Source: a bacterium
Lineage (GTDB): Bacteria > Patescibacteriota > Saccharimonadia > UBA4664
DNA: 64,000 nt
NCBI GenBank assembly: GCA_016699105.1
Contig: CP064960.1
Location: 1,223,436-1,287,435, forward strand
Direction of reading: 5' to 3'
Shown: positions 5,605 through 19,401 of the stretch, one piece after another
Numbering within the stretch: position 1 is the first letter of the stretch
How the letters are laid out: each line of letters starts with the position of its first letter
Translations under genes and position numbers: made by a program
The notes under the pieces: model-generated
The model's input: the letters and a program-made list of their open reading frames with translations, nothing else
Databases searched by the model: none
Told to the model about the DNA's origin: nothing

Positions 5605-5959
5605 AGGTCAAGCGCGAATTTAGGTAGAATTGCAGCACAAAGACAAATGGTAGTGTGCCAATTTTGGCCCAGGTTTGATTGACACCGCTGGCCACCAAGC
5701 CGGCTAAAATAGCCGTGCTGAGCACATAGCCGGCACCGCTGACACCGGCAAAACTGGCGAATCGTTGTATCAAGCGGTTGCTCGTTTGAAAATTGTATCG
5801 AGCATTGAGAGCAAAGCTATACAACATGGCCAAGCCGATAGAAAGGGCGTTGGCCAATACAATCGGTAGACCAACGATTGAACCGAGCAGCCAGAATAGG
5901 GTGACATCAATAACGACCGCTCCCCCACCGATGACAGCATACCAAGCTAGGCGTTTCAC
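5579..5959 (-). CDS. GtrA family membrane protein (polysaccharide synthesis/translocation)
   Basis: ~126 aa, 4 TM helices, GtrA-like signature; overlaps neighbouring genes in an operon. Confidence 0.7.
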   Translation of the reverse strand: MKRLAWYAVIGGGAVVIDVTLFWLLGSIVGLPIVLANALSIGLAMLYSFALNARYNFQTSNRLIQRFASFAGVSGAGYVLSTAILAGLVASGVNQTWAKIGTLPFVFVLQFYLNSRLTFATGGTNE

Positions 5960-7179
5960 TATTTGAGCTCCATTCTGAGGCTGGCAGGAAGGTGCCTCTG
6001 AAAATTATGCCACTGCCAATACCAAACCTGGTCTAAATAACTACCGCCCTCACCCCAGTATCCATCCACATGGTACTGGTCATGTATCTCATATGTGTAG
6101 AGGGTTTGCAATTGCTCTGAGTCGACAATCTGGTTGGTTTGACCATACATCAGCCAGGCGATGTCGGCTGGTGGCGAGGCAATGCGGGAGCGGAAATCGC
6201 GCAGCAGTGGTTCAATTTGAGTCAAGGTAGAGCGGGCTGTCTGAGCTCGGGTCTTGTCTGGTGTAGTGTATTCCTCAACCAGATGATAGACCAGTAAGAG
6301 ACTATCGTAGCCAAAGCTGTCAGCTGCCGGACCCATGACACTGCGAGCAGATGTGACCTCGCCGGCGGCACTCACCAATACCCAATCAGGTAACTGGTCA
6401 GCAGCCAGCAATGAATTGATGGTCGTATAATTGTCCCGTACCAATTCTGCCCAAGCATATTGCGGTACTTTGGTTGCTAGATAGGCGTAGGTGTCGGGAT
6501 CAAAATATCCTGGATTGACCAAGTGCGGATTGCGGCTTCCATCAGCTGACGAATCGACAAACCACCGCCCGCCCGCCTTGAAGACACACTTGGACCACCA
6601 ATCGGCAGTGTGGCGGGAAGCAGTTGAGGCATAGCCTTGACCTGGCCATTTTTCATCGGCTCGAAACAGCGCTGCGGCGGTGAGCTGATCAGCCGAGCAA
6701 ACATTATTGGCGTCGGCCAAACCGTAGACGCCACTGGCGTTTTTGGCCCATTTCCAGGACAACAAACTGTCATTTTGACGGTGGCGTAAATGGTCTTGAG
6801 TCCATTGCCACAGACCAGCAAACATAGCTTTGTCATTTTCGGCAACCGCGCGGTTGAGCGCCTGAGCCTGGGAATACGATGTCGTCAATCCCTGATTGTT
6901 GGGGTCGACTACTTGGCCATAACTAATAATGTAATGGTCTTTGAAATATGCCCAGGAATCTTGGAGGACGATCTCATTGCGACTCTTAACCCGATAAACT
7001 TGAGCCCAGTCGCCATTGGTCGAAATATAATTCGGTAAATCGATGAAACTTGAGGCACCAGTCGTAAAATCGGCGACCAGTTCGGAGTGATCAATATGAG
7101 CTTCATCTTGGGAGTGGTGCCGGCTTTGATCTGGCTTACGATTTCGTGCGTCAGGATCAAATATTCGATATTGCGCCAA
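5959..7179 (-). CDS. glycoside hydrolase family 8-like (endo-beta-1,4-glucanase, BcsZ-like) domain
   Basis: GH8-like blocks: WAYFKDHYIISYGQVVD...TTSYSQAQA (cf. TSEGQ), AGLWQWTQDHL, ADANNV..DQ. No signal peptide. N-terminus overlaps the upstream GT-C ORF by 270 nt in another frame, so a frameshift-masked fusion is possible. Confidence 0.55.
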   Translation of the reverse strand: MAQYRIFDPDARNRKPDQSRHHSQDEAHIDHSELVADFTTGASSFIDLPNYISTNGDWAQVYRVKSRNEIVLQDSWAYFKDHYIISYGQVVDPNNQGLTTSYSQAQALNRAVAENDKAMFAGLWQWTQDHLRHRQNDSLLSWKWAKNASGVYGLADANNVCSADQLTAAALFRADEKWPGQGYASTASRHTADWWSKCVFKAGGRWFVDSSADGSRNPHLVNPGYFDPDTYAYLATKVPQYAWAELVRDNYTTINSLLAADQLPDWVLVSAAGEVTSARSVMGPAADSFGYDSLLLVYHLVEEYTTPDKTRAQTARSTLTQIEPLLRDFRSRIASPPADIAWLMYGQTNQIVDSEQLQTLYTYEIHDQYHVDGYWGEGGSYLDQVWYWQWHNFQRHLPASLRMELK

Positions 7180-8549
7180 TCATCATCATAGGTCTGTCGG
7201 ACCTCGGGATCGTATTCGGCGGTAAAGAAATAGCTCACATGTTGGTACGCGCGCTGTTGCACAAAATATGGATACACGTAGTTGTCTGCGACAATGTGGG
7301 CTGAAGTGGGAATATGGGTCTGAACCCAATCGAGGGCTGCTTGCTGGTTGGAAGTTTCGGATACAGTGTATGGCTTGGCTCCTAATACCGACAGCGTGAG
7401 CAATAATAATATAAATCCGGCGGCCAAATGCACCCGCCTAAACCAACGCCAGCGACGAGGCCAGAGTTCTTGACCCAGCACGACCCAAAAACTAGCGATA
7501 GTAGCCGCCAGAAGCGGAATGTAGGGCACAATATACAGATCTATCACTATTTTGCCGCGAGCCAAAAACAATAAATAGAGCCAACAAGCAACAGCAAGTA
7601 CGATTAGGTAGGGATACCGACGACGACGCCAGATCGCCATGGCGGTCAAGCCGATCAAGCCGATAGCACCCCCAAGCAAGATAAATGGATCTTTGAGCGC
7701 CCACGTATTTAGGTTTAGCCGAAAGCTACTACGTGCTTGCCACGGCCAGGCAAAGTCGCCTCGGCCTAATTGCAGCTGAAAAGTTTCAACCATGCTGACA
7801 TGGAGCGGTTGGCCCGAGGCGTCGCGGGGAGCGGGTAGAAGTTCGCCCTTGAGGGCAGCATATAAGAAAAACACCAGTATCATGGCGCCAACGACGAACG
7901 TCCAATACAACAAAGCGTGCAACCGGTGGCCGGGATCGGCTTTTTTCCAGATGAGATACCAAAATGCTGGTAAGAAGAAGATGGCGTTGAGTTTGGTGAG
8001 GACAGCTATGCCCAAGAAGACGGCGCTCCAGATATAGTGATGCAATTGATGAGCTGGGCGGCTGGCCCACCACAAACTGAGCAGAACCCAAAAGGTCATG
8101 AGATTGTCGAGCAAAATGCGGCGCTGAAAATAGATGCCCAACGGCGACAAACTAAAAATTAAAACCGCACCAAAACCAGCGGCTTTGCTACCGTGAGTGA
8201 GTCGTTTGGTAACAGCGTAAAGTAATACACACGAACTCAAATGAATGATCAGCATAAACACTCGGCCACTCGTGACGAATGATCCAAACAGATTGTCGGT
8301 GCCACCAGTCAGCCACAACCAGGCACCAATGGTGATCCAACCAAGCGGCGCATGGTCATAGCGGTAGGTATAAACATCAAGTTGGCCAGTAGTTATAAAC
8401 TGCCATCCCCGTGATATGTAGGTGGCTTCATCGTTTTCGATGTATGGATAACCGGTCATATTCCAGCCATGGGCTAAACCGGCAACCACGAGCAATCCGA
8501 CAACAAGCCAAGTTTCGGGACGTTTGAGAAATTTGATGAGACGGTTCAT
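6909..8549 (-). CDS. GT-C fold glycosyltransferase, ArnT/PMT (GT39/GT83)-like polyprenol-phosphate-sugar-dependent transferase
   Basis: Start at MNRLIKFLKRP (abuts upstream stop). >10 TM helices. Loop-1 YIENDEATYISRGWQF DE-motif typical of PMT_2/ArnT family. C-terminal ~90 codons are ambiguous: they overlap the GH8 ORF. Confidence 0.6.
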   Translation of the reverse strand: MNRLIKFLKRPETWLVVGLLVVAGLAHGWNMTGYPYIENDEATYISRGWQFITTGQLDVYTYRYDHAPLGWITIGAWLWLTGGTDNLFGSFVTSGRVFMLIIHLSSCVLLYAVTKRLTHGSKAAGFGAVLIFSLSPLGIYFQRRILLDNLMTFWVLLSLWWASRPAHQLHHYIWSAVFLGIAVLTKLNAIFFLPAFWYLIWKKADPGHRLHALLYWTFVVGAMILVFFLYAALKGELLPAPRDASGQPLHVSMVETFQLQLGRGDFAWPWQARSSFRLNLNTWALKDPFILLGGAIGLIGLTAMAIWRRRRYPYLIVLAVACWLYLLFLARGKIVIDLYIVPYIPLLAATIASFWVVLGQELWPRRWRWFRRVHLAAGFILLLLTLSVLGAKPYTVSETSNQQAALDWVQTHIPTSAHIVADNYVYPYFVQQRAYQHVSYFFTAEYDPEVRQTYDDDWRNIEYLILTHEIVSQIKAGTTPKMKLILITPNWSPILRLVPQVSSIYRIIFRPMATGLKFIGLRVAMRSSSKIPGHISKTITLLVMAK

Positions 8550-9817
8550 AGTACACTCCGGTTCGGTGGTCGGTGGGCGCCGAGGTGGGCAGTTTTTTCC
8601 CAGCCGTGATGGCCCCGGTGATGTCGCCAGAGAGCGCGCCAAGCAGCTGCTGACAGTAACAATTGGTATGGTAAGTAGGCTAACAAAAAGCGGACGTAAT
8701 GATACCAACGTACCGGACGTTGTTGCTCTTGCCCAAACTCATACAAGCCAACAAGACTGACTAAAATACTCAAAATACTGAGCAATAATGGCATAAACGA
8801 CAGTAAGCTGACAAATATATTGGCCTGCAAATACAGCCCCAGCAAGAGGGTAAGCGGCGCCAATGCTAATACCCAAGCCATAAAGCTGGGGCTTTGCAAA
8901 ATATAGAGTACGAGGCCAATTTGTTTGCCGTAGGACAACCGACGCCAGTCACCTTTGGAGGTGATCTGAAGAAATCCTTGATTCCACCTGGTGCGCTGTT
9001 TGATGAATGCCGAGACGGTAGCGGGCGTTTCTTCGCGGGTAACATGACTGGCGTCGTACATAACACCAAAACGCTTGCCAGCCAGACTGAGGCGGATACC
9101 GATATCGGCGTCTTCGGTCAGGCAGCTCTCATCCCAGCCCCCAACTCCGAGTACATCGGCTTTGCGGAAAAAGACCGTATTACCGCCGAGTGGCACGATG
9201 CCAGCTCGGGCGTAATAATGCATCCGGGACTTAAACCAAAAGAAATATTCTAAAACATTGGCGGCACTAAACCAGCGGCTGTCAAAATTCATCAGTTGAA
9301 CTCCGCCCTGCAAGATATCGATAGCTTGGTTGTGATAAAGGGTGTTGGCAATATTTAAAATATCGGGGCTGACATCGTCTTCGGCGTCAAAAATGGTCAC
9401 CAGCTCATGACGCGCAGCTGCCAGCCCGATGTTCATAGCCCGGGCTTTGCCACTGGGTGGGTCGAATACAATCACCCGGGCGTTGGTAATGTGGTTTTGG
9501 GCGATGCTATCGCGAGCAGCAGTGATAGTATCTTGGTCATCAGGTGTACAGAGCACGATTAATTCGAATTTGTGAACCGGATAATTGATGGCCGCCAAAG
9601 CCTTAAGTGTTTCGCCGATGACCTGGTGTTCGTGGCGGCTGGGTAACAAAATACTGAAGCCAAAGAGCGGCGGACGGTACGTTTTGGGTGCACGAGCGTG
9701 GTCAATGCGAGCCGGATCAGCCCAGGCATACAACGTGAGATACAGATTGACGAAGCCGTGAAGCGTCAAAGCGAGGGCAAAGCCGGCTAGTAGCCATGTC
9801 TGAACATCACTTAGCAT
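8546..9817 (-). CDS. processive family-2 glycosyltransferase (cellulose/chitin/PNAG-synthase-like), integral membrane
   Basis: GT-A motifs DAEDD and DxD, plus processive-GT signature QRTRW (QxxRW). Flanking TM helices. Confidence 0.7.
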   Translation of the reverse strand: MLSDVQTWLLAGFALALTLHGFVNLYLTLYAWADPARIDHARAPKTYRPPLFGFSILLPSRHEHQVIGETLKALAAINYPVHKFELIVLCTPDDQDTITAARDSIAQNHITNARVIVFDPPSGKARAMNIGLAAARHELVTIFDAEDDVSPDILNIANTLYHNQAIDILQGGVQLMNFDSRWFSAANVLEYFFWFKSRMHYYARAGIVPLGGNTVFFRKADVLGVGGWDESCLTEDADIGIRLSLAGKRFGVMYDASHVTREETPATVSAFIKQRTRWNQGFLQITSKGDWRRLSYGKQIGLVLYILQSPSFMAWVLALAPLTLLLGLYLQANIFVSLLSFMPLLLSILSILVSLVGLYEFGQEQQRPVRWYHYVRFLLAYLPYQLLLSAAAWRALWRHHRGHHGWEKTAHLGAHRPPNRSVL

Positions 9818-11724: not shown

Positions 11725-14684
11725 TTAGGCTTTAACCACAAAGTTAACGATTTTGTGTGGCACTAATATCGTCTTAACTATCGTTTTACCCTCTAGATGC
11801 GGCACTACCTTAGGATCGACCAGAGCGGCGGCTTTGACTTCTTCGTCGGTCGCGTCGGCGGCTACAACCAGTTCACCGCGCAATTTGCCGTTGACCTGAA
11901 GGATGATGGTTACAATGTCGTCTTTGATGAGTTCGGGATCGTACTTCGGCCAAGGCGCTTGATGGACGCTCCCCTCTTGATGCAAGTTTTGGTGCCAGAC
12001 TTCTTCGGCCAAGTGGGGCACAAAGGGAGCCAACATGAGTACCAAAGTGCGGACAGTTCGCTCGCGCAAATCGTGGGCGTTAGCTTGGCGCAGTTTTTGC
12101 TTAACTTCGGTAGTGGTTAGATAATTGACCAACTCCATCATGGCTGACACACCAGTATTGAAATGCATATCCTCGATGTCGTGGTGCACTTTTTTGAGCG
12201 TCTTATGGACGATGCGGTCGGTGGCCACTGTAAATGCGCCTAAGTCGTTTTCATAGCCGACTGAACCTGACAGTGTTTCGACACCGTCAGTAAGGTCGTC
12301 AAGCCAGGTCCAGACCCGATAGACGAAGCGGGAGACGCCGTTGAGATGATCTTCTGACCAAGCTTTAACTTCGTCGAACGGACCCATAAACATTTCGTAT
12401 AAGCGGATGGTATCAGCACCATACTCGGCGATGACGCTGTCGGGGTTGATAACGTTGCCTTTAGATTTGCTCATTTTTGACCGTCGGGTCCCAGGATCAT
12501 GCCATGGGAGCGACGACGCGCATAGGGTTCACTGGTGGGTACGAGGCCTTCGTCATATAGGAATTTGTGCCAAAAGCGACTGTAGAGCAAATGGAGGGTA
12601 GTGTGCTCCATGCCACCGTTGTAGAGGTCGACAGGGGTCCAGTATTTGAGGTTGGCGGCTGATGCAAATTCGTTGTTATTGTGTGGGTCGGCGTAGCGCA
12701 GGAAGTACCAACTGGATCCGGCCCAATTGGGCATGGTGTCGGTTTCGCGCTGCGCGGGTCCCCCACACTTGGGACATTCGGTATTGACCCAGTCGGTGAT
12801 GGCCGCCAGGGGAGACTTCCCGGTATCAGTGGGCTCATAGTGATCCACTTTGGGTAGTTCGATGGGTAGTTGGTCAACCGGCACGGGCACCACACCATCT
12901 TTGGCGCAATGAACTACCGGAATCGGCTCGCCCCAATAATGTTGGCGACTAAAGATCCAGTCGCGCAGGCGGTACTTGGTGGCACCTTTGCCGGCGCCCT
13001 TATCAAACAGAGCTTTGACGATAGCGCGCTTGGCCTCGACGCCGGACAGACCGTTGAACTGGGTGGAGTTGATGAGCGGCCCATTGGCAGCAAAGCTTGT
13101 GCCTTGTGTAAAAAAGCGAAGCCACAATGCGTGCATTTCGTCTTGTACGTTGGTTAATGCTTCGGTGACAGGCAACCAGACCGGCTCGACGTTGTTGTGC
13201 TTTTCGCTACTCGTCAGCTTTAGTTCATTCCTATTATCGCTCTTCAATCTGAATAGGAAACCGGTAGTGACCGCTAACCGGTTGATCTTTTTTTCGGCAG
13301 AGAAATAATGATGATGAATCCGAAATGGAGCTTGTTCGACCAGTTCAAAGTCGGTATACCCGGTTTCTTCATTGACTTCGCGCCTGGCTGTGTCTAATGG
13401 CTGCTCACCCTGGTCTATGCCTCCACCAACCAGCAGATGTCCGCCCCAATTATCATGGCGGCCGTAGTGATCCATACTCAGAACCTTTTTACCTGATTGA
13501 TCGAGCAGCACAGCCACAATACTAGGGCGCTCCTCGGGTGCTTCAGGGCCATTGCCAGTATAAGGTTCAACCACATATGTGATGGGCAGATTAAAGGCTT
13601 TGGCAAATTCATAGTCGCGCTCGTCGTGGGCAGGTACGGCCATGATGGCGCCGGTGCCATATGAACCGAGTACGTAATCGGCGACCCACACTGGGATTTT
13701 CTCGCCAGTAAGCGGATGGATTGCCTTAATGCCGGTGTCGACGCCAGTTTTGACTTTGGATTCTTCTTGGCGCGATAGTTCGGAGGCCTTGAGGGCGGCG
13801 TCGATATAATCGGCGGCCTCTTGGTTGGCTTTCCAGCCGTTATCTTGCCAGGTTTTGGCGACTTCAGGCGAGACCACCAGGAAGGTGGCGCCAAAGAGTG
13901 TGTCGGGGCGGGTGGTGTAGACGGTGACTGTTGGTGTTGATTGTTCTTTAAGATTGAGACCTGCTAATTCCCAAGTAATTTCGGCACCTTCGGAACGGCC
14001 GATCCAATTGATCTGCTGGGTGGCGATGCGGTCGAGATAATCGACGGTCTTGAGATCTTCGGCCAGACGATCGGCGTAGGCGGTGATTTTGAGCATCCAC
14101 TGGGTGAGCATTTTCTTTTCGACTGGTGTGCCACAGCGCTCATGCTTACCGCCTTCGACTTCTTCGTTGGCAAGGCCGGTTTTACAAAATGGGCACCAGT
14201 TGATGGGCAGTTCTGCCTGATAGGCGAGGCCTTTTTCGAGGAGCTTCAAAAAAATCCATTGGGTCCATCTGTAATAGTTGGGATCTGACGTGCGGACTTC
14301 ACGGTCCCAATCGAAACTCAAACCCAAGGCGCGCATTTGGAGACGGAAGTTGGCGACGTTGCGCTCGGTTGCTACTTGGGGGGCAATCTTGTTTTTGATG
14401 GCGTAGTTTTCGGTTGGTAAGCCAAACTCGTCAAAACCCATGGGGTAGAGCACGTTGTATCCCTGCATACGCTTATGGCGAGCCATGATATCTAAGGCGG
14501 TATAACTCAGTACGTGGCCGACGTGCAGACCGTCGCCGCTGGGATACGGGAATTCAACGAGATAAAAATACTTCGGCCGGGTGTGGTCATCATCGCGAGC
14601 GGCATACAGCTTGGTGTCGGCCCAGACGCCCTGCCATTTGGATTCGATTGCTTTGGGATCGTATTTGTTCATAGTTGGCCTCAA
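11725..14684 (-). CDS. leuS: leucyl-tRNA synthetase (single gene split by 1-nt homopolymer frameshift at 12474-12478; carries an inserted NUDIX domain)
   Basis: HVGH (HIGH) motif, editing-domain TTRPDT, C-terminal fragment begins inside KMSKS (..GQK|MSKSKGN). Adding one A to the A5 run restores GQKMSKS. ~135-aa insert with Nudix box [24 protein letters not shown]. Confidence 0.9.
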
Positions 14685-14778: not shown

Positions 14779-14937
14779 ATGGATATCGATGACTTTCTGA
14801 TCGGATTATTCGGATTGATGATGATTTTTCTCGGACCTCTTCTGTTTGCCGTGGGATTATTTATTGGCGGAAGGGGTTTGGTAATAACTTTCATCGGCCT
14901 GCTTTGGTGGCTATGGTCATGGGGACAGCTGGACTAG
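14779..14937 (+). CDS. small hydrophobic membrane protein (52 aa)
   Basis: Unlisted ORF MDIDDFLIGLFGLMMIFLGPLLFAVGLFIGG...; two predicted TM helices. Speculative. Confidence 0.2.
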   Translation: MDIDDFLIGLFGLMMIFLGPLLFAVGLFIGGRGLVITFIGLLWWLWSWGQLD

Positions 14938-15266
14938 CGATTGTGCTTATTGGGCTCAGGCATAGCGAGACTGTCGGCCGTCGCGCCAATAACAGCTATT
15001 AACCAATCCCGGTCTTCCCACATGTCTGGAGGAACCCGCAAGTAGGGCTTTGATCCGGGATATGCTTGGCCGTCGAATGACTCATCGAGATACTGTCGGC
15101 TAACTGGCGTGATTTTAATGAACAGCGTGTCGTCACAAATGAAGGCTGTCGGTTTGCTATCAACGTATAGGCAATACTCTCCAAACATCCGGCGAGTACT
15201 TAGACGATCCGACATCACTGCAAGCTGCTCTACGAGAAAATCGATCGTGTCTTGAGATGTTGCCAT
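14934..15266 (-). CDS. TfoX/Sxy N-terminal domain protein
   Basis: MFGEYCLYVDSKPTAFICDDTLFIK matches TfoX_N consensus (MFGgyglY..gk.FalvcddqLylK). Confidence 0.5.
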   Translation of the reverse strand: MATSQDTIDFLVEQLAVMSDRLSTRRMFGEYCLYVDSKPTAFICDDTLFIKITPVSRQYLDESFDGQAYPGSKPYLRVPPDMWEDRDWLIAVIGATADSLAMPEPNKHNR

Positions 15267-15570: not shown

Positions 15571-16344
15571 CTAAATCTCGCCGCGTAAATAGCGTTGACG
15601 TTCGGTAGCGTCAAAGCGCTCGATGGCGTAGCGGAGCATGGTGCGCGGCATGCGATGATAGTTGGCATTTAGGAATTGACGTAGGACCGATATATCGCGT
15701 TTACCGATTTCACGAAGCATCCATCCAACGGCTTTATGAATGAGATCATGTGGGTCTTGCATCAATTGCTCGGCCAGCCGTAACGATAAGTCAAACTGAC
15801 CGGCTTTGATGTAATAAAAAGTGGCGAGGACGGCGATGCGGCGTTCCCAGATGAGCTTGGAGGCTGCTAATTTTTCAAGTGCCGGGCGACCATCAGTTTG
15901 GGAGTCTAACCATGGCCCCACAATGTAAGGTGCTGAGGAATCAACGAGGTCCCAATTATTGATGTGCTCCGTGTGTCCCAGATAGATTTTATAAATGGCT
16001 TTGCGGGTTTCCGGAGTGCCGTTTTCATATTGATACACCAGTAACAACAGTGCCGTTAATCGCTCTTCATGAATTTTGCTGACTAATAATTTCTTGATTT
16101 CTGGTAACGAAATATGGCGGAATTTCTGGACGATTGAGCGTTGCAATGGGACGGTGACGCCAATGAAACGATCACCATCGGCATATTGCCCGGGTCCGGT
16201 CTTGAAGTAGCGTTGTGACAGTGCAGCCCGCACCGGGTCGGCAAATCGTTTGAGTGATTGCTGGACTGATTTGGCGGTTTGGAGTGGTAATAGGTTCACG
16301 CTTGCCAGCATAGCAGATTTAGCCGGTGTGACCGAGACCACCAC
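15571..16344 (-). CDS. DNA alkylation repair protein (AlkD/AlkC-like HEAT-repeat glycosylase family)
   Basis: Family-typical NNWDLVD and WMLREIG blocks; ~257 aa. Confidence 0.6.
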
Positions 16345-16753
16345 TGCCTCTGGAAGTTGAGTCTAAGCTGTCGACTGCTGTAATGTCGGCTACGACGTAT
16401 GTGGCCAGGACGGCTTGGGCGATACGGTCACCGTCTTGGACTGTGTAGTCTTGGCTCGACAAGTTGACCAATATAACCATGAGCTCACCGCGGTAATCGG
16501 CATCAATCGTGCCCGGAGCATTGAGCACCGTAATGCCATGTTTAGCCGCCAAGCCACTGCGAGGGCGAATCTGGAGTTCGTGGCCGGAGGGAATAGCACT
16601 GTAGAGACCGGTGGGTACGATAGCTCGCTCGAGCGGCGCCAATTTAACTGCCTCGTCGATATTGGCTGTCAAATCAAAACCGGCGGCACCAGCAGTTTGA
16701 TAGGCGGGTAACGGATGGCGGCTGCGATTGATGAGTGGGAGTTGTATAGACAT
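16319..16753 (-). CDS. dut: dUTP diphosphatase
   Basis: dUTPase motifs [20 protein letters not shown]. Real start MSIQLPL at 16753 overlaps the murF stop (TAATG). Confidence 0.85.
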
Positions 16754-18051
16754 TATTTGGCGTTGAATTGTTGTCTTTTGAGGCGCAGCCAGGCTGATGA
16801 CTGGCGGACGAGCTGGGTGGCGTCTGCGGTATCGGCCAGGAGCAGCTTGGTACACTCTTCGGCGAAAACACCGTTTTGAGAACCTTTGATCAGCACGATA
16901 TCGCCGTCGTGGATCATCGATTTGAGAAAGGCTCCCGCAGCATATGGCGAGTCGGCTGGTTTGTAGCGGGTGGGGTCGAGACCGGCTCCCACGGCGGCAG
17001 GTCCGAGCCAACGATTGGCATCGGTGCCGATAGTCACCAGGAAATCAACTGCAGCAGCGAGCTGGCCGGCTGATTCGTGATAACTCTGGCTGGTGGCGCC
17101 TAATTCGTTCATGGAGCCCAAAACAGCAATACGACGACCGCCCTCAGCAATATCCATCGATTTGAGAAGTTCAAGCGCTTCGGCAACGGCTTGCGGACTG
17201 GAATTGTAGGTGTCGTCGATGAGTAAGCTATTGTTGGTGCCGGGTAACGGATTGAGACGACCTGCCACTGGCTTGATGTCAGATATTCCTTTGGTTAATT
17301 GATGGACAGTCAATCCGAGAGCGTCGCCAACCGCCCAGGCTGCAACCAATGATTGCGCGGCTGTTGACCCAAGCAATGCTACCGGCTGATCACGTAGCAC
17401 GACGTGGCCGTGTTGCTTGATCGTAAGTTCCGAACCAGCGGTTTTGACAGTCGAGCGGAAGCTGTAACCGCGCTCGATATCTTGACCATAATACAGATGG
17501 TGGGCTAAGCCATTGATGTATTGACGGCGGTATTTGTCGGGGATTTCGTCGTGAGCGGCTATGAGGGTACCGCAATGAGCCGAAATGGATAATTCTTCGG
17601 CAGCCACCTGATCGAGTCCGTCAGGGAAATTGGCCATATGCTCGGGTGCAATGGCCGTAACTACACCAATATCGGGTGTCAGATAGTTCCAAAAGATGGC
17701 TAAATCACCGGAACGGTCGGTGCCCAATTCGAGAACCAATACATCATATTGATAATGGCGCGACCGCCACCAGGCTTGGATCATTTTGCCGAGCCAGGCG
17801 AATGGGTTGTAGAGCGACTGCGGCACCGACTGCTCAAAGACTGATAGCGGCAGACCAACTTCGGAATTGTAATTGCCCTGATGTACTAGTACCCGGTATT
17901 TTTGGCCAAGCACGGTGGCAATAGCCATTTTGGTCGATGTTTTACCCACCGAGCCCACGACAGCCACGACCTTGAGGTTATAGCGCTTGATCGTGCGAGC
18001 AGTAAGGTGTTCGAAATAACTGGCGATAAACCGCCGAAACTGAGCTTTCAT
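16753..18051 (-). CDS. murF: UDP-N-acetylmuramoyl-tripeptide--D-alanyl-D-alanine ligase
   Basis: Mur ligase P-loop [11 protein letters not shown] and Mur ligase middle/C-terminal domains. Confidence 0.85.
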
Positions 18052-18065
18052 AGCCTCATTGTAGT

Positions 18066-19401
18066 ATGATGAAGGGCGAAACAGGAAATGTTATAACCAT
18101 GAGTTCTCAACTGGTTCGGATCCGTGGCGGCAAACCGTTGTCTGGAACCGTCAAAGTGGCTGGTGCTAAAAACGCCGCCTCCAAGATGATGATTGCCAGC
18201 CTCTTAACGGCCGAGGAAGTGGTACTCGAAAACTGCCCTGATATCGAAGAAATATCGATTACAACCGAGATTTGTGCAGCTGTTGGTGCCCACGTATCAA
18301 GAGATGGCACCAAGGTGCGATTAACGACCCCCACATTACTTCGACGCGCGTCAGTAAGCTGAGCCGGACGAACCGGATTTCGATCCTGGCCCTTGGTCCG
18401 CTGCTCCAGCGGCATGGTGAAGCCGAAGTACCACGAGTTGGTGGCGATGCCATCGGGCCACGTCCCGTTGATTTTCATATCCAAGCTTTAGAACAAATGG
18501 GCGCTAAGATTGTTGAACGTGACCATAGTTATGAGGCCACAGCGCCACACGGATTGCACGGTGCGCTCATTGCGCTGGCTTACCCCTCGGTTGGTGCTAC
18601 CGAAAACATCATTTTGCCGCCGTTATGGCCAAAGGCCGCACCCGCATCGAAAACGCCGCCACCGAGCCAGAGATCCAAGATATCGTCAAAATGCTCCAGC
18701 AAATGGGTGCCATTATTGAATTTGGCGCCAATCGGGTGATTACTATCGATGGTGTCGAGCGGCTGGGTGGAGTTCATTACCGCGTGATGCCTGACCGCAT
18801 GGAAGCCGCCTCGTGGGCCAATATGGCTTTGGCGACAAATGGTGAGATCAGGGTACAAGATGCCCGCCAACAAGATATGGGTACGTTTTTGAACACCGTG
18901 CGGCGGCTCGGTGGTGACTTTACGGCCGATGATGACGGCATCACGTTTCGACGGGGTGTGGCCGGTCTCAAAGGCATCGAGCTTGAAACTGATACCTACC
19001 CGGGGTTTATGACAGATTGGCAGCAACCGACGGTGGTGACTCTCACGCAAGCCAAAGGTATGTCGGTGGTGCACGAATCAGTCTACGAAGATCGTTTTGG
19101 ATATTGTGCCGACCTCAACCGTATGGGTGCCGACATTGGTGTCTTTAGTAAATGTCTCGGTGAGATTAACTGTCGCTGGCGTAATCGTAGTTTGCGACAC
19201 TCGGCCGTTATCAAAGGCCCGACCCCGCTGGAAGCCACTAAGATAGAAGTCCCGGACATACGGGCTGGAATGGCTCAAGTGATAGCGGCCTGTGTGGCCA
19301 ATGGCGAGAGTGTGCTGACGGGCGTCCATCATCTGGAACGTGGCTACGAAGGCTTGTGGCAAAAGCTGCGGGCGCTGGGTGCTGATTTTACGCTGGAATA
19401 G
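18066..19401 (+). CDS. murA: UDP-N-acetylglucosamine 1-carboxyvinyltransferase (split by two 1-nt frameshifts at ~18340-18360 and ~18625)
   Basis: Three consecutive frames cover full MurA (VAGAKNAASKMMIASLL.., RISILALGPLL.., GGDAIGPRPVDFHI, ..ENAATEPEIQDIV..). Second junction repaired by GG->GGG giving NIILAAVMAKGRT. Active-site residue is Asp (GGDAIG) not Cys. Confidence 0.85.

Follow-up and report, generated by a model that had tools for sequence, protein, structure and literature searches.

The 64,000-nucleotide stretch of DNA analysed here (the window: positions 1,223,436-1,287,435 of contig CP064960.1, assembly GCA_016699105.1, Saccharimonadia, UBA4664 in GTDB; all positions below are in window numbering) carries the leuS gene of leucyl-tRNA synthetase (LeuRS), whose product contains a complete Nudix hydrolase domain. 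The Nudix domain is nested in the CP1 editing domain, which is itself inserted in the catalytic Rossmann fold, and breaks in nucleotide identity show that the editing-domain segment holding it is exchanged between close strains by recombination. We favour, with a probability of about 0.6, the explanation that the gene encodes an editing-competent LeuRS with a nested, very probably active accessory Nudix pyrophosphohydrolase, which is one of a set of interchangeable cassettes. A Nudix domain inside LeuRS had been proposed in a preliminary description of this DNA. It is borne out by a Pfam match, by alignment to the LeuRS of Thermus thermophilus (1H3N), by a confident model of the Nudix fold and by many independent assemblies.

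A Nudix domain nested in the LeuRS editing domain

The features of leuS used in the analysis are the following, all on the minus strand:

11725..14672, minus strand, leuS, leucyl-tRNA synthetase (open reading frames (ORFs), Pfam, alignment to T. thermophilus LeuRS)
13551..14009, minus strand, CP1 editing domain before the insert (PF13603, residues 226-378, E 2.6e-55)
13929..13955, minus strand, site A, β-hairpin loop just before the T-rich region, variable between alleles and occupied by domains in relatives
13899-13916, minus strand, T-rich motif TTRPDT in the CP1 part before the insert
13605-13628, minus strand, HDERDYEF with the catalytic Asp, in the CP1 part before the insert
13092..13556, minus strand, insert by comparison with canonical bacterial LeuRS (ORF residues 377-531; alignment to 1H3N)
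13149..13529, minus strand, Nudix hydrolase domain, Pfam envelope (PF00293, ORF residues 386-512, E 2.1e-16 in context)
13356..13424, minus strand, Nudix box, read from the sequence, fitting G-x5-E-x7-R-E-U-x-E-E-x-G-U
12957..13091, minus strand, C-terminal part of CP1 after the insert (NSTQFNG...RLRDW), leading back to the catalytic core (aligns to T. thermophilus 378 onward)
13055..13595, minus strand, exchangeable cassette, 541 nt (blastn break in L002/L003)
12995..14024, minus strand, recombination tract, about the whole of CP1 with the cassette (identity profiles against the sister allele)
12474..12478, minus strand, A5 run in the KMSKS codons (caaaaatgagc; sequence and comparison with three other assemblies)

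The alignment of the LeuRS to 1H3N (E 2.4e-187) has a single interruption, the insert. ORF residues 377-531 (~155 residues) stand opposite only 11 residues of the reference (1H3N 367-377), which leaves ~145 extra residues. The preliminary description had put the insert at ~135 residues, where a canonical LeuRS has ~20; the first figure agrees well with the alignment and the second is about right, given the 11 residues of T. thermophilus. Scored alone against the Pfam NUDIX profile PF00293, the segment 13110-13526 reached 63.9 bits (gathering cut-off 21.1, E 2e-17). The insert has a complete Nudix box, as had been claimed. The last position of the box is Tyr instead of Ile, Leu or Val, and Tyr is also found there in 86% of the LeuRS-embedded homologs. 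A further Tyr stands 17 positions after the box (HHHYF, 13302-13316).

The segment that follows the insert (NSTQFNG...RLRDW) still belongs to CP1, and the Nudix domain is therefore nested within the editing domain. The insertion point proposed earlier needs refinement: it is not the boundary between editing domain and catalytic core but a loop of CP1. In bacterial LeuRS I4b is a long loop between α2 and α3, which includes T373 of the Streptococcus pneumoniae enzyme, lies ~4 Å from an inhibitor that occupies the editing pocket, and is not conserved among bacterial LeuRSs (PMC3747510). The S. pneumoniae numbering (T-rich region 247-252; T247, D344, D347 and T373) translates to T253, D350, D353 and ~379 in the window LeuRS. 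This constant offset of +6 puts S. pneumoniae T373 at the start of the insert, and thereby the insert at I4b. In the AlphaFold2 model of the 733-aa N-terminal part of the protein, a helix (351-359) is followed by the strands and helices of the Nudix domain and then by a second helix (544-557). Numbering and model together place the insertion point in the I4b loop, which runs between α2 and α3 of CP1 and borders the editing pocket. I4b is a loop without a fold or an activity of its own, whereas the occupant here is a 155-residue domain that is predicted to fold confidently. We therefore do not class the Nudix domain of the window as I4b proper; it newly occupies the I4 site.

Modelled alone with 44 homologs, the insert gave a confident Nudix fold with the α/β/α architecture (predicted local distance difference test (pLDDT) 93.8, predicted template modelling score (pTM) 0.89); within the 733-aa model its residues have pLDDT values of 82-96. 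Structure prediction had been suggested earlier as a check for an independent lobe, and in the models the insert is one. The reading frame is open across both cassette junctions. An intein or other self-splicing insertion was rejected: the junctions read contain no HN[CST] motif, and there is no Pfam match to a Hint domain.

Outside the insert the protein has the features of a class Ia bacterial LeuRS. Pfam recognised tRNA-synt_1, tRNA-synt_1_2, tRNA-synt_1g and Anticodon_1, CP1 has its T-rich region and catalytic Asp, and the synthetic-site signatures HVGH and KMSKS were read from the sequence. KMSKS is broken only in the window assembly, where 1 nt is missing. TTRPDT, GTG and HDERD, the signatures of editing, are intact. 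Across 41 Nudix-bearing LeuRS the T-rich, GTG and Asp motifs of the editing site are invariant, including T253, T254, R255, D257 and T258 as well as H349, D350, R352 and D353. By these signatures, the LeuRS of the window would be a canonical, editing-competent bacterial enzyme.

In the window leuS is split into two ORFs (12471-14672 and 11725-12474), which overlap in ATGA. The N-terminal ORF extends on the minus strand over 12471..14684 (737 aa), with the real start at the ATG at 14672, and GenBank annotates only this 733-aa part (QQR52418.1). Restoring the 1-nt homopolymer deletion gives 982 aa, and an intact 982-aa protein of the same allele is P0387, encoded on contig L086. The A5 run in the KMSKS codons is one A short of the A6 found in three short-read assemblies with otherwise identical DNA, L002 and L086 among those with the extra A. 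Relative to those assemblies, which are of the same species, the window has five indels, each of them the loss of 1 nt from a homopolymer (12474-12478, 7092, 15566, 18332 and 18615); at 7092 this loss breaks up a PMT_2/GH8 gene, which is read as the ORFs 5959-7179 and 6909-8708. Because three assemblies have A6 and all five indels are homopolymer deletions, the frameshift in KMSKS is most likely an assembly error, and the pattern points to systematic under-calling of homopolymers in the window assembly. For the same reasons a programmed frameshift or a truly split LeuRS, which the ATGA overlap might suggest, is unlikely. In a scan with Rfam, the neighbourhood of leuS gave neither a T-box nor a match to any other RNA family.

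Exchange of the cassette between close strains

Two sister contigs from other samples (L002 and L003; LeuRS protein P0121) are syntenic with the window, with 96-99% DNA identity over ~12 kb. In blastn comparison their homology to the window ends exactly at 13596 and returns at 13054. In place of the 541-nt cassette they carry 1045 nt, which encode two Nudix domains ~32% identical to that of the window. The break points lie inside the conserved motifs HDERD/YEF and FNG/LSGVEAK (the slash marking the break). The GC content at third codon positions is 0.517 in the cassette and 0.633 in the rest of leuS.

The divergence extends beyond the cassette. Between the window and the sister allele, nucleotide identity is 100% over 14654-14025 and again from 12994 on, and 70-97% in 14024-13605. 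Codons 1-216 do not differ at all, whereas 50 of codons 217-358 do; 36 of these 50 differences are synonymous, and the non-synonymous ones cluster at residues 240-248, in site A. Since the flanks are identical and the tract has diverged mostly by synonymous changes, the identity profile identifies the editing tract as an imported, long-diverged allele and not as a product of local mutation.

Two other origins of the polymorphism were considered and rejected. Local hypermutation, for example by a diversity-generating retroelement, does not fit changes that are mostly synonymous next to a cassette without any homology. A transposon-like insertion does not fit either: the cassette borders show only short matches at chance level and no repeats.

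The window allele is not confined to the window. L086, from a third sample (ERZ23795167), carries the same single-Nudix allele with two mismatches in the cassette, and each of the two alleles is present in two assemblies. A second pair of contigs (L084 and L085) has flanks that are 99.86% identical over 6.4 kb, with Nudix domains of the same length but only 36% amino acid identity; an α/β hydrolase is present at site A in one of the two and absent in the other. In further pairs, too, the identity of the body and that of the insert are decoupled. Where the LeuRS bodies are ~90% identical, one member may have a Nudix domain and the other none, or one a Nudix domain and the other an α/β hydrolase; elsewhere the bodies are 88% and the inserts 92% identical. 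From these nucleotide and protein comparisons we conclude that the editing-domain segment is exchanged together with its cassette.

Further patches of divergence (93-96% identity) from L002, L003 and L086 are found at 8055-8554 and 16096-18812, in glycosyltransferase and MurF-region genes; the genome is thus mosaic in several places and not in leuS alone. Directly upstream of leuS, at 14934-15266, lies a gene with the N-terminal domain of the competence regulator TfoX (TfoX_N), which is kept in the sister contigs. Its presence fits with natural transformation as the supply of DNA for allele exchange.

Catalytic conservation, substrate class and spread

To assess conservation, 113 single inserts were cut from the same site of LeuRS, 104 of which were compared with the window insert and found to be 18-43% identical to it; among themselves the inserts share only 20-40% identity. 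G47, E62, E65, E66 and W129 (insert numbering) are conserved in 100% of the 113, G48, E53 and R61 in 90-92%, and K91 in at least 90%. A strict Nudix box is present in 98 of the 113, and Tyr or Phe occupies the position 17 residues after the box in 96%. In the LeuRS checked that have two or three Nudix copies, the strict box is retained by most copies. That these residues are conserved in inserts which have diverged so far argues for retained catalysis: it indicates that the catalytic residues are under purifying selection and that the embedded Nudix is very probably an active pyrophosphohydrolase. The invariance of E62, E65 and E66, with E53 and R61 at 90-92%, would suit divalent-cation-dependent hydrolysis of a nucleoside diphosphate linked to another moiety, X.

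A recurrent subclass has the box G-x5-Q...[A/T]-E-x2-EE (E53Q and R61A/T). It comprises P0011, P0023, P0158 (the copy at site A), P0241 and P0242 (the middle copy), P0246 and P0167, and these domains may have an altered chemistry or be inactive.

The nearest structures to the insert are 2AZW, a protein of Enterococcus faecalis, RppH, diadenosine polyphosphate (ApnA) hydrolases (of Aquifex, Thermus, Mycobacterium, lupin and Caenorhabditis elegans), DIPP, and fungal or oomycete effectors with decapping or inositol pyrophosphate (PP-InsP) activity such as AvrM14. Among the NCBIfam models the best match is NudB-like with 36.2 bits (cut-off 103); RppH (PRK00714 models) scores 31.6 bits against a cut-off of 118, and the insert therefore falls outside the RppH/Ap4A-hydrolase subfamily by this measure. 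A Tyr 16-18 positions after the box, where the insert has one, is reportedly a marker of ApnA hydrolases, according to the Nudix literature of the Bessman laboratory; we treat it as a lead and not as proof. By analogy with the RppH, ApnA hydrolase and decapping neighbours, which would suit diadenosine tetraphosphate (Ap4A) or cap-like substrates, the substrate probably belongs to the polyphosphate-linked nucleotides or the RNA-end caps. To our knowledge, Nudix chemistry offers no precedent for acyl-adenylates.

The reference alignment proposed in the preliminary description confirmed the insertion and refined its site, and many LeuRS of Patescibacteria have the same architecture. Motif spacing allowed 115 of the 120 nearest LeuRS to be classified, and domains were identified in those examined. 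No insert was found in 30 of the 115. A single module of ~150 aa at the site used in the window (site B) occurs in 68, 12 of them with a further insert at site A and 2 with one at a third site, C. Site B carries an α/β serine hydrolase in 10 of the 115 and two or three tandem modules in 5, with Nudix in all five examined. Site A holds a domain in 17 of the 115 (ASCH, α/β hydrolase or Nudix where examined); such domains were located in P0124, P0130, P0181, P0158, L018 and L039. Site C falls in the leucine-specific domain region, after RLRDW and before KMSKS; P0153 and P0174 have ~130 extra residues there.

When the insert alone was searched against 1.84 billion representative proteins, there were only 380 matches, and 79 of the best 146 were LeuRS. 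With a profile built from embedded domains (A1), embedded Nudix domains score 105-164 bits and free-standing ones at most 55 bits, L012 being the sole exception. These scores delimit the embedded Nudix as a LeuRS-specific clade that has spread through Patescibacteria. The Nudix-LeuRS architecture was found in at least Saccharibacteria, Parcubacteria, Moraniibacteriota, Liptonbacteria and fragments of metagenome-assembled genomes (MAGs) labelled 'Bacilli', the last with cassettes 46-49% identical to that of the window; the phyletic count comes from a genome scan with a narrower alignment (A3) and is a lower bound.

Several single cases were noted. L012 (2420-2965) is a free-standing gene of 181 aa in a Saccharibacteria MAG, which scores 136 bits and retains at its N-terminus a segment resembling the linker; this gene represents either a cassette that escaped or the ancestral state. 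P0014, a 356-aa LeuRS fragment, has Trp at a universally conserved Gly, which indicates an organism with UGA = Gly (genetic code 25) translated with the wrong table, and would extend Nudix-LeuRS to Gracilibacteria- or Absconditabacteria-like genomes. The LeuRS fragments P0008, P0012, P0016, P0020 and P0021, which look low in GC, have the cassettes closest to that of the window (43-49% identity including the linker). P0020 is labelled 'Bacilli bacterium' by NCBI, and the likeness of these cassettes is a hint that the cassette, or leuS itself, has passed from one phylum to another.

Fusion to other proteins occurs as well among Nudix domains related to the LeuRS-type clade: to a fragment of the RNA polymerase β′ subunit (two copies), to prolyl-tRNA synthetase (ProRS), and in the order Ham1 (ITPase), Nudix, N-terminus of an aminoacyl-tRNA synthetase (aaRS) of class I. 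Further fusions are with an APH kinase and with an M17 peptidase carrying GNAT domains. The fusion proteins found in the representative search are P0319, P0298, P0272, P0341 and P0245. In Acidimicrobiia (L028 and L044) a generic Nudix gene lies divergent to leuS at a distance of ~1.1 kb; these are 2 of ~64 non-embedded loci, and the neighbourhood may be conserved or a coincidence within one class.

The window has one more Nudix gene, reported in the preliminary description as a stand-alone gene 11 kb away from the insert:

1441-2100, stand-alone Nudix (PF00293, E 1.9e-19)

The gene is real. It adjoins the gene of RNase III (728-1432), and the order NusB-Nudix-RNase III is kept in L001, L084 and L085. 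Its product is 25% identical to the insert and scores 50 bits with the LeuRS-Nudix profile, versus 159 bits for the insert. This identity, the low score and its own NusB-Nudix-RNase III group reject it as donor or paralog of the insert, and suggest an RNA-processing, perhaps RppH-like enzyme distinct from the LeuRS insert.

Explanations of the nested Nudix and its meaning

In the explanation that we favour, LeuRS of Patescibacteria would carry cassettes of one to three Nudix domains, an α/β serine hydrolase or ASCH in two loops flanking the editing pocket, and homologous recombination would replace the editing-domain segment and swap the cassette between strains. Aminoacylation and editing by LeuRS would proceed as usual. 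The Nudix would be an accessory house-cleaning enzyme, carried in an essential, constitutively expressed protein of a streamlined genome, and would hydrolyse a substrate of the (di)nucleoside polyphosphate type, for example Ap4A or another ApnA, or a damaged or capped nucleotide. House-cleaning is suggested by the fusion of related Nudix domains and Ham1 ITPase to other core enzymes that use nucleoside triphosphates. Several points weigh against this explanation. House-cleaning accounts poorly for the location of the cassettes exactly at both rims of the editing pocket, for swaps of diverged alleles (~32-36% identical) in near-identical genomes, and for the interchange of Nudix, α/β-hydrolase and ASCH folds. 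As to the substrate, the insert reaches the equivalog cut-off of no curated NCBIfam subfamily, its closest structure, 2AZW, is uncharacterised, and structural similarity between Nudix enzymes discriminates substrates poorly.

An alternative, which takes up the Ap4A by-products named in the preliminary description, is clearance of Ap4A and other ApnA coupled to the synthetase, or their sensing and regulation, these dinucleoside polyphosphates being side products of LeuRS and other aaRS. We consider this possible, if doubtful. The only match of the single insert among PDB sequences is lupin Ap4A hydrolase (E 1.7e-6), the nearest structures include the ApnA hydrolases 3I7U, 1VC8, 9CXX, 1JKN and 1KT9 and RppH with Ap4A (7SP3), and the aromatic residue after the box would point the same way if its reported value as a marker holds. 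The insert is, however, beside the editing site and not at the synthetic site, where Ap4A would form, and LeuRS is a weak producer of Ap4A. Moreover, Ap4A clearance leaves the interchange with α/β hydrolases and ASCH unexplained, and the missed thresholds of the curated families count against it as well. A further alternative, which the exchange and the position of the cassettes would suit, is a platform for repair or detoxification of tRNA 3′ ends: CP1 positions the CCA end, and the cassettes would strip toxic modifications (toxSAS 3′-pyrophosphate, N-acylation or ADP-ribosylation) from tRNA-Leu or Leu-tRNA, or would destroy adenylate-mimic inhibitors, and polymorphism at the locus would be maintained by an arms race against phages, hosts or competitors. 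The two insertion sites lie on either side of the editing pocket, where A76 is bound, the copy number varies from 0 to 3 with different hydrolase folds at the same sites, and swaps of diverged cassettes in identical backgrounds resemble loci under diversifying selection. Reportedly, toxSAS enzymes attach pyrophosphate to tRNA at its CCA end (PMC11559606; bioRxiv 10.1101/2021.04.30.441581), and Nudix enzymes degrade 3′-pyrophosphorylated alarmones (PMC9293644). But a CP1 pocket is lacking in RNA polymerase and ProRS, where related Nudix domains are also found; one member, L012, stands free; and the exchange could be due to neutral recombination among bacteria capable of natural transformation. 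Nor is there a specific match to a defence system: with the PADLOC-DB models the window cassette has no match and L012 and P0123 match the candidate family PDC-S07 weakly, in the Nudix part only, while PHROGs gives generic Nudix families only, and membership in a known defence system was rejected on these grounds. We hold such a repair platform to be unlikely, and distinctly so in its broadest form, in which CP1 would be a docking platform for exchangeable hydrolase cassettes that repair attacked tRNA 3′ ends or aminoacyl-tRNA or destroy LeuRS inhibitors, with polymorphism driven by an arms race.

Two more explanations find still less room. The insert could be a structural or regulatory lid at I4 that gates the editing pocket, as I4ae does in archaeal and eukaryotic LeuRS, with catalysis irrelevant. 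The occurrence of different folds at the same site would agree with such a lid, but 30 of the 115 close relatives do without any insert, and invariant metal-binding glutamates in 113 highly diverged inserts, together with the strict boxes kept by most copies of the multi-copy enzymes, make a pure lid role very improbable. An artefact, that is a chimeric assembly, or decay to a pseudogene is hardly credible. The frameshift in leuS and the annotation of the 733-aa part alone could be read in this way; however, an independent assembly from short reads contains this allele uninterrupted (982 aa), the indels are confined to homopolymers of the window, many other genomes share the architecture, and the frame continues through both junctions. 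The agreement of the independent assemblies led us to reject both.

Compared with known systems, bacterial I4b and archaeal-eukaryotic I4ae have the same α2-α3 position bordering the editing pocket and are likewise variable between lineages (PMC3747510). In contrast to the loop of I4b and the helix of I4ae, the occupant here is a complete catalytic domain of 155 residues, present in up to three copies in relatives and differing in content between near-identical strains. From the RppH, ApnA, DIPP and decapping-effector Nudix enzymes and 2AZW the insert differs by an identity of only 14-25%, by its embedding in another enzyme and by the clade-typical residues K91 and W129. The NadM-Nudix proteins (nicotinamide mononucleotide (NMN) adenylyltransferase/Nudix), which appeared as weak NCBIfam matches and as structural matches (2QJO, 2QJT), also combine a Nudix domain and an ATP-using enzyme in one polypeptide. 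These are end-to-end fusions with a known metabolic logic, whereas the Nudix of the window is nested two levels deep. Recombining variable loci such as specificity or immunity cassettes show the same sharp drop from 100% to no identity, the same mostly synonymous divergence of the flanks and several diverged alleles, but the locus described here lies inside an essential cytosolic housekeeping enzyme.

In a 2026 survey of domain insertions the editing domain of LeuRS figures solely as an inserted domain and never as a host (PMC13114784). Our full-text literature searches found no paper describing a Nudix-bearing aaRS or cassette exchange in a synthetase; in automated annotation the architecture does occur, as the JGI product 'leucyl-tRNA synthetase/8-oxo-dGTP pyrophosphatase MutT'. 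What is new is the nested, exchangeable arrangement, the enzyme and the domain each being known already.

The editing domains of aaRS are regarded as conserved and self-contained; that of LeuRS here hosts complete catalytic domains on either rim of its pocket. Strain-level polymorphism of this kind would be expected at surface or immunity loci rather than in a cytosolic enzyme that is essential. If the Nudix is only a house-cleaning enzyme, the arrangement shows how streamlined genomes package accessory functions, and it marks I1 and I4 of CP1 as loops that accept whole domains, which is useful for engineering. If the reading of repair under an arms race were true, a housekeeping synthetase would be part of the defence repertoire of the cell. 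If the Nudix acts on a by-product of the synthetase or on the tRNA 3′ end, it would constitute a new layer of quality control or repair in the translation of the much-reduced Patescibacteria.

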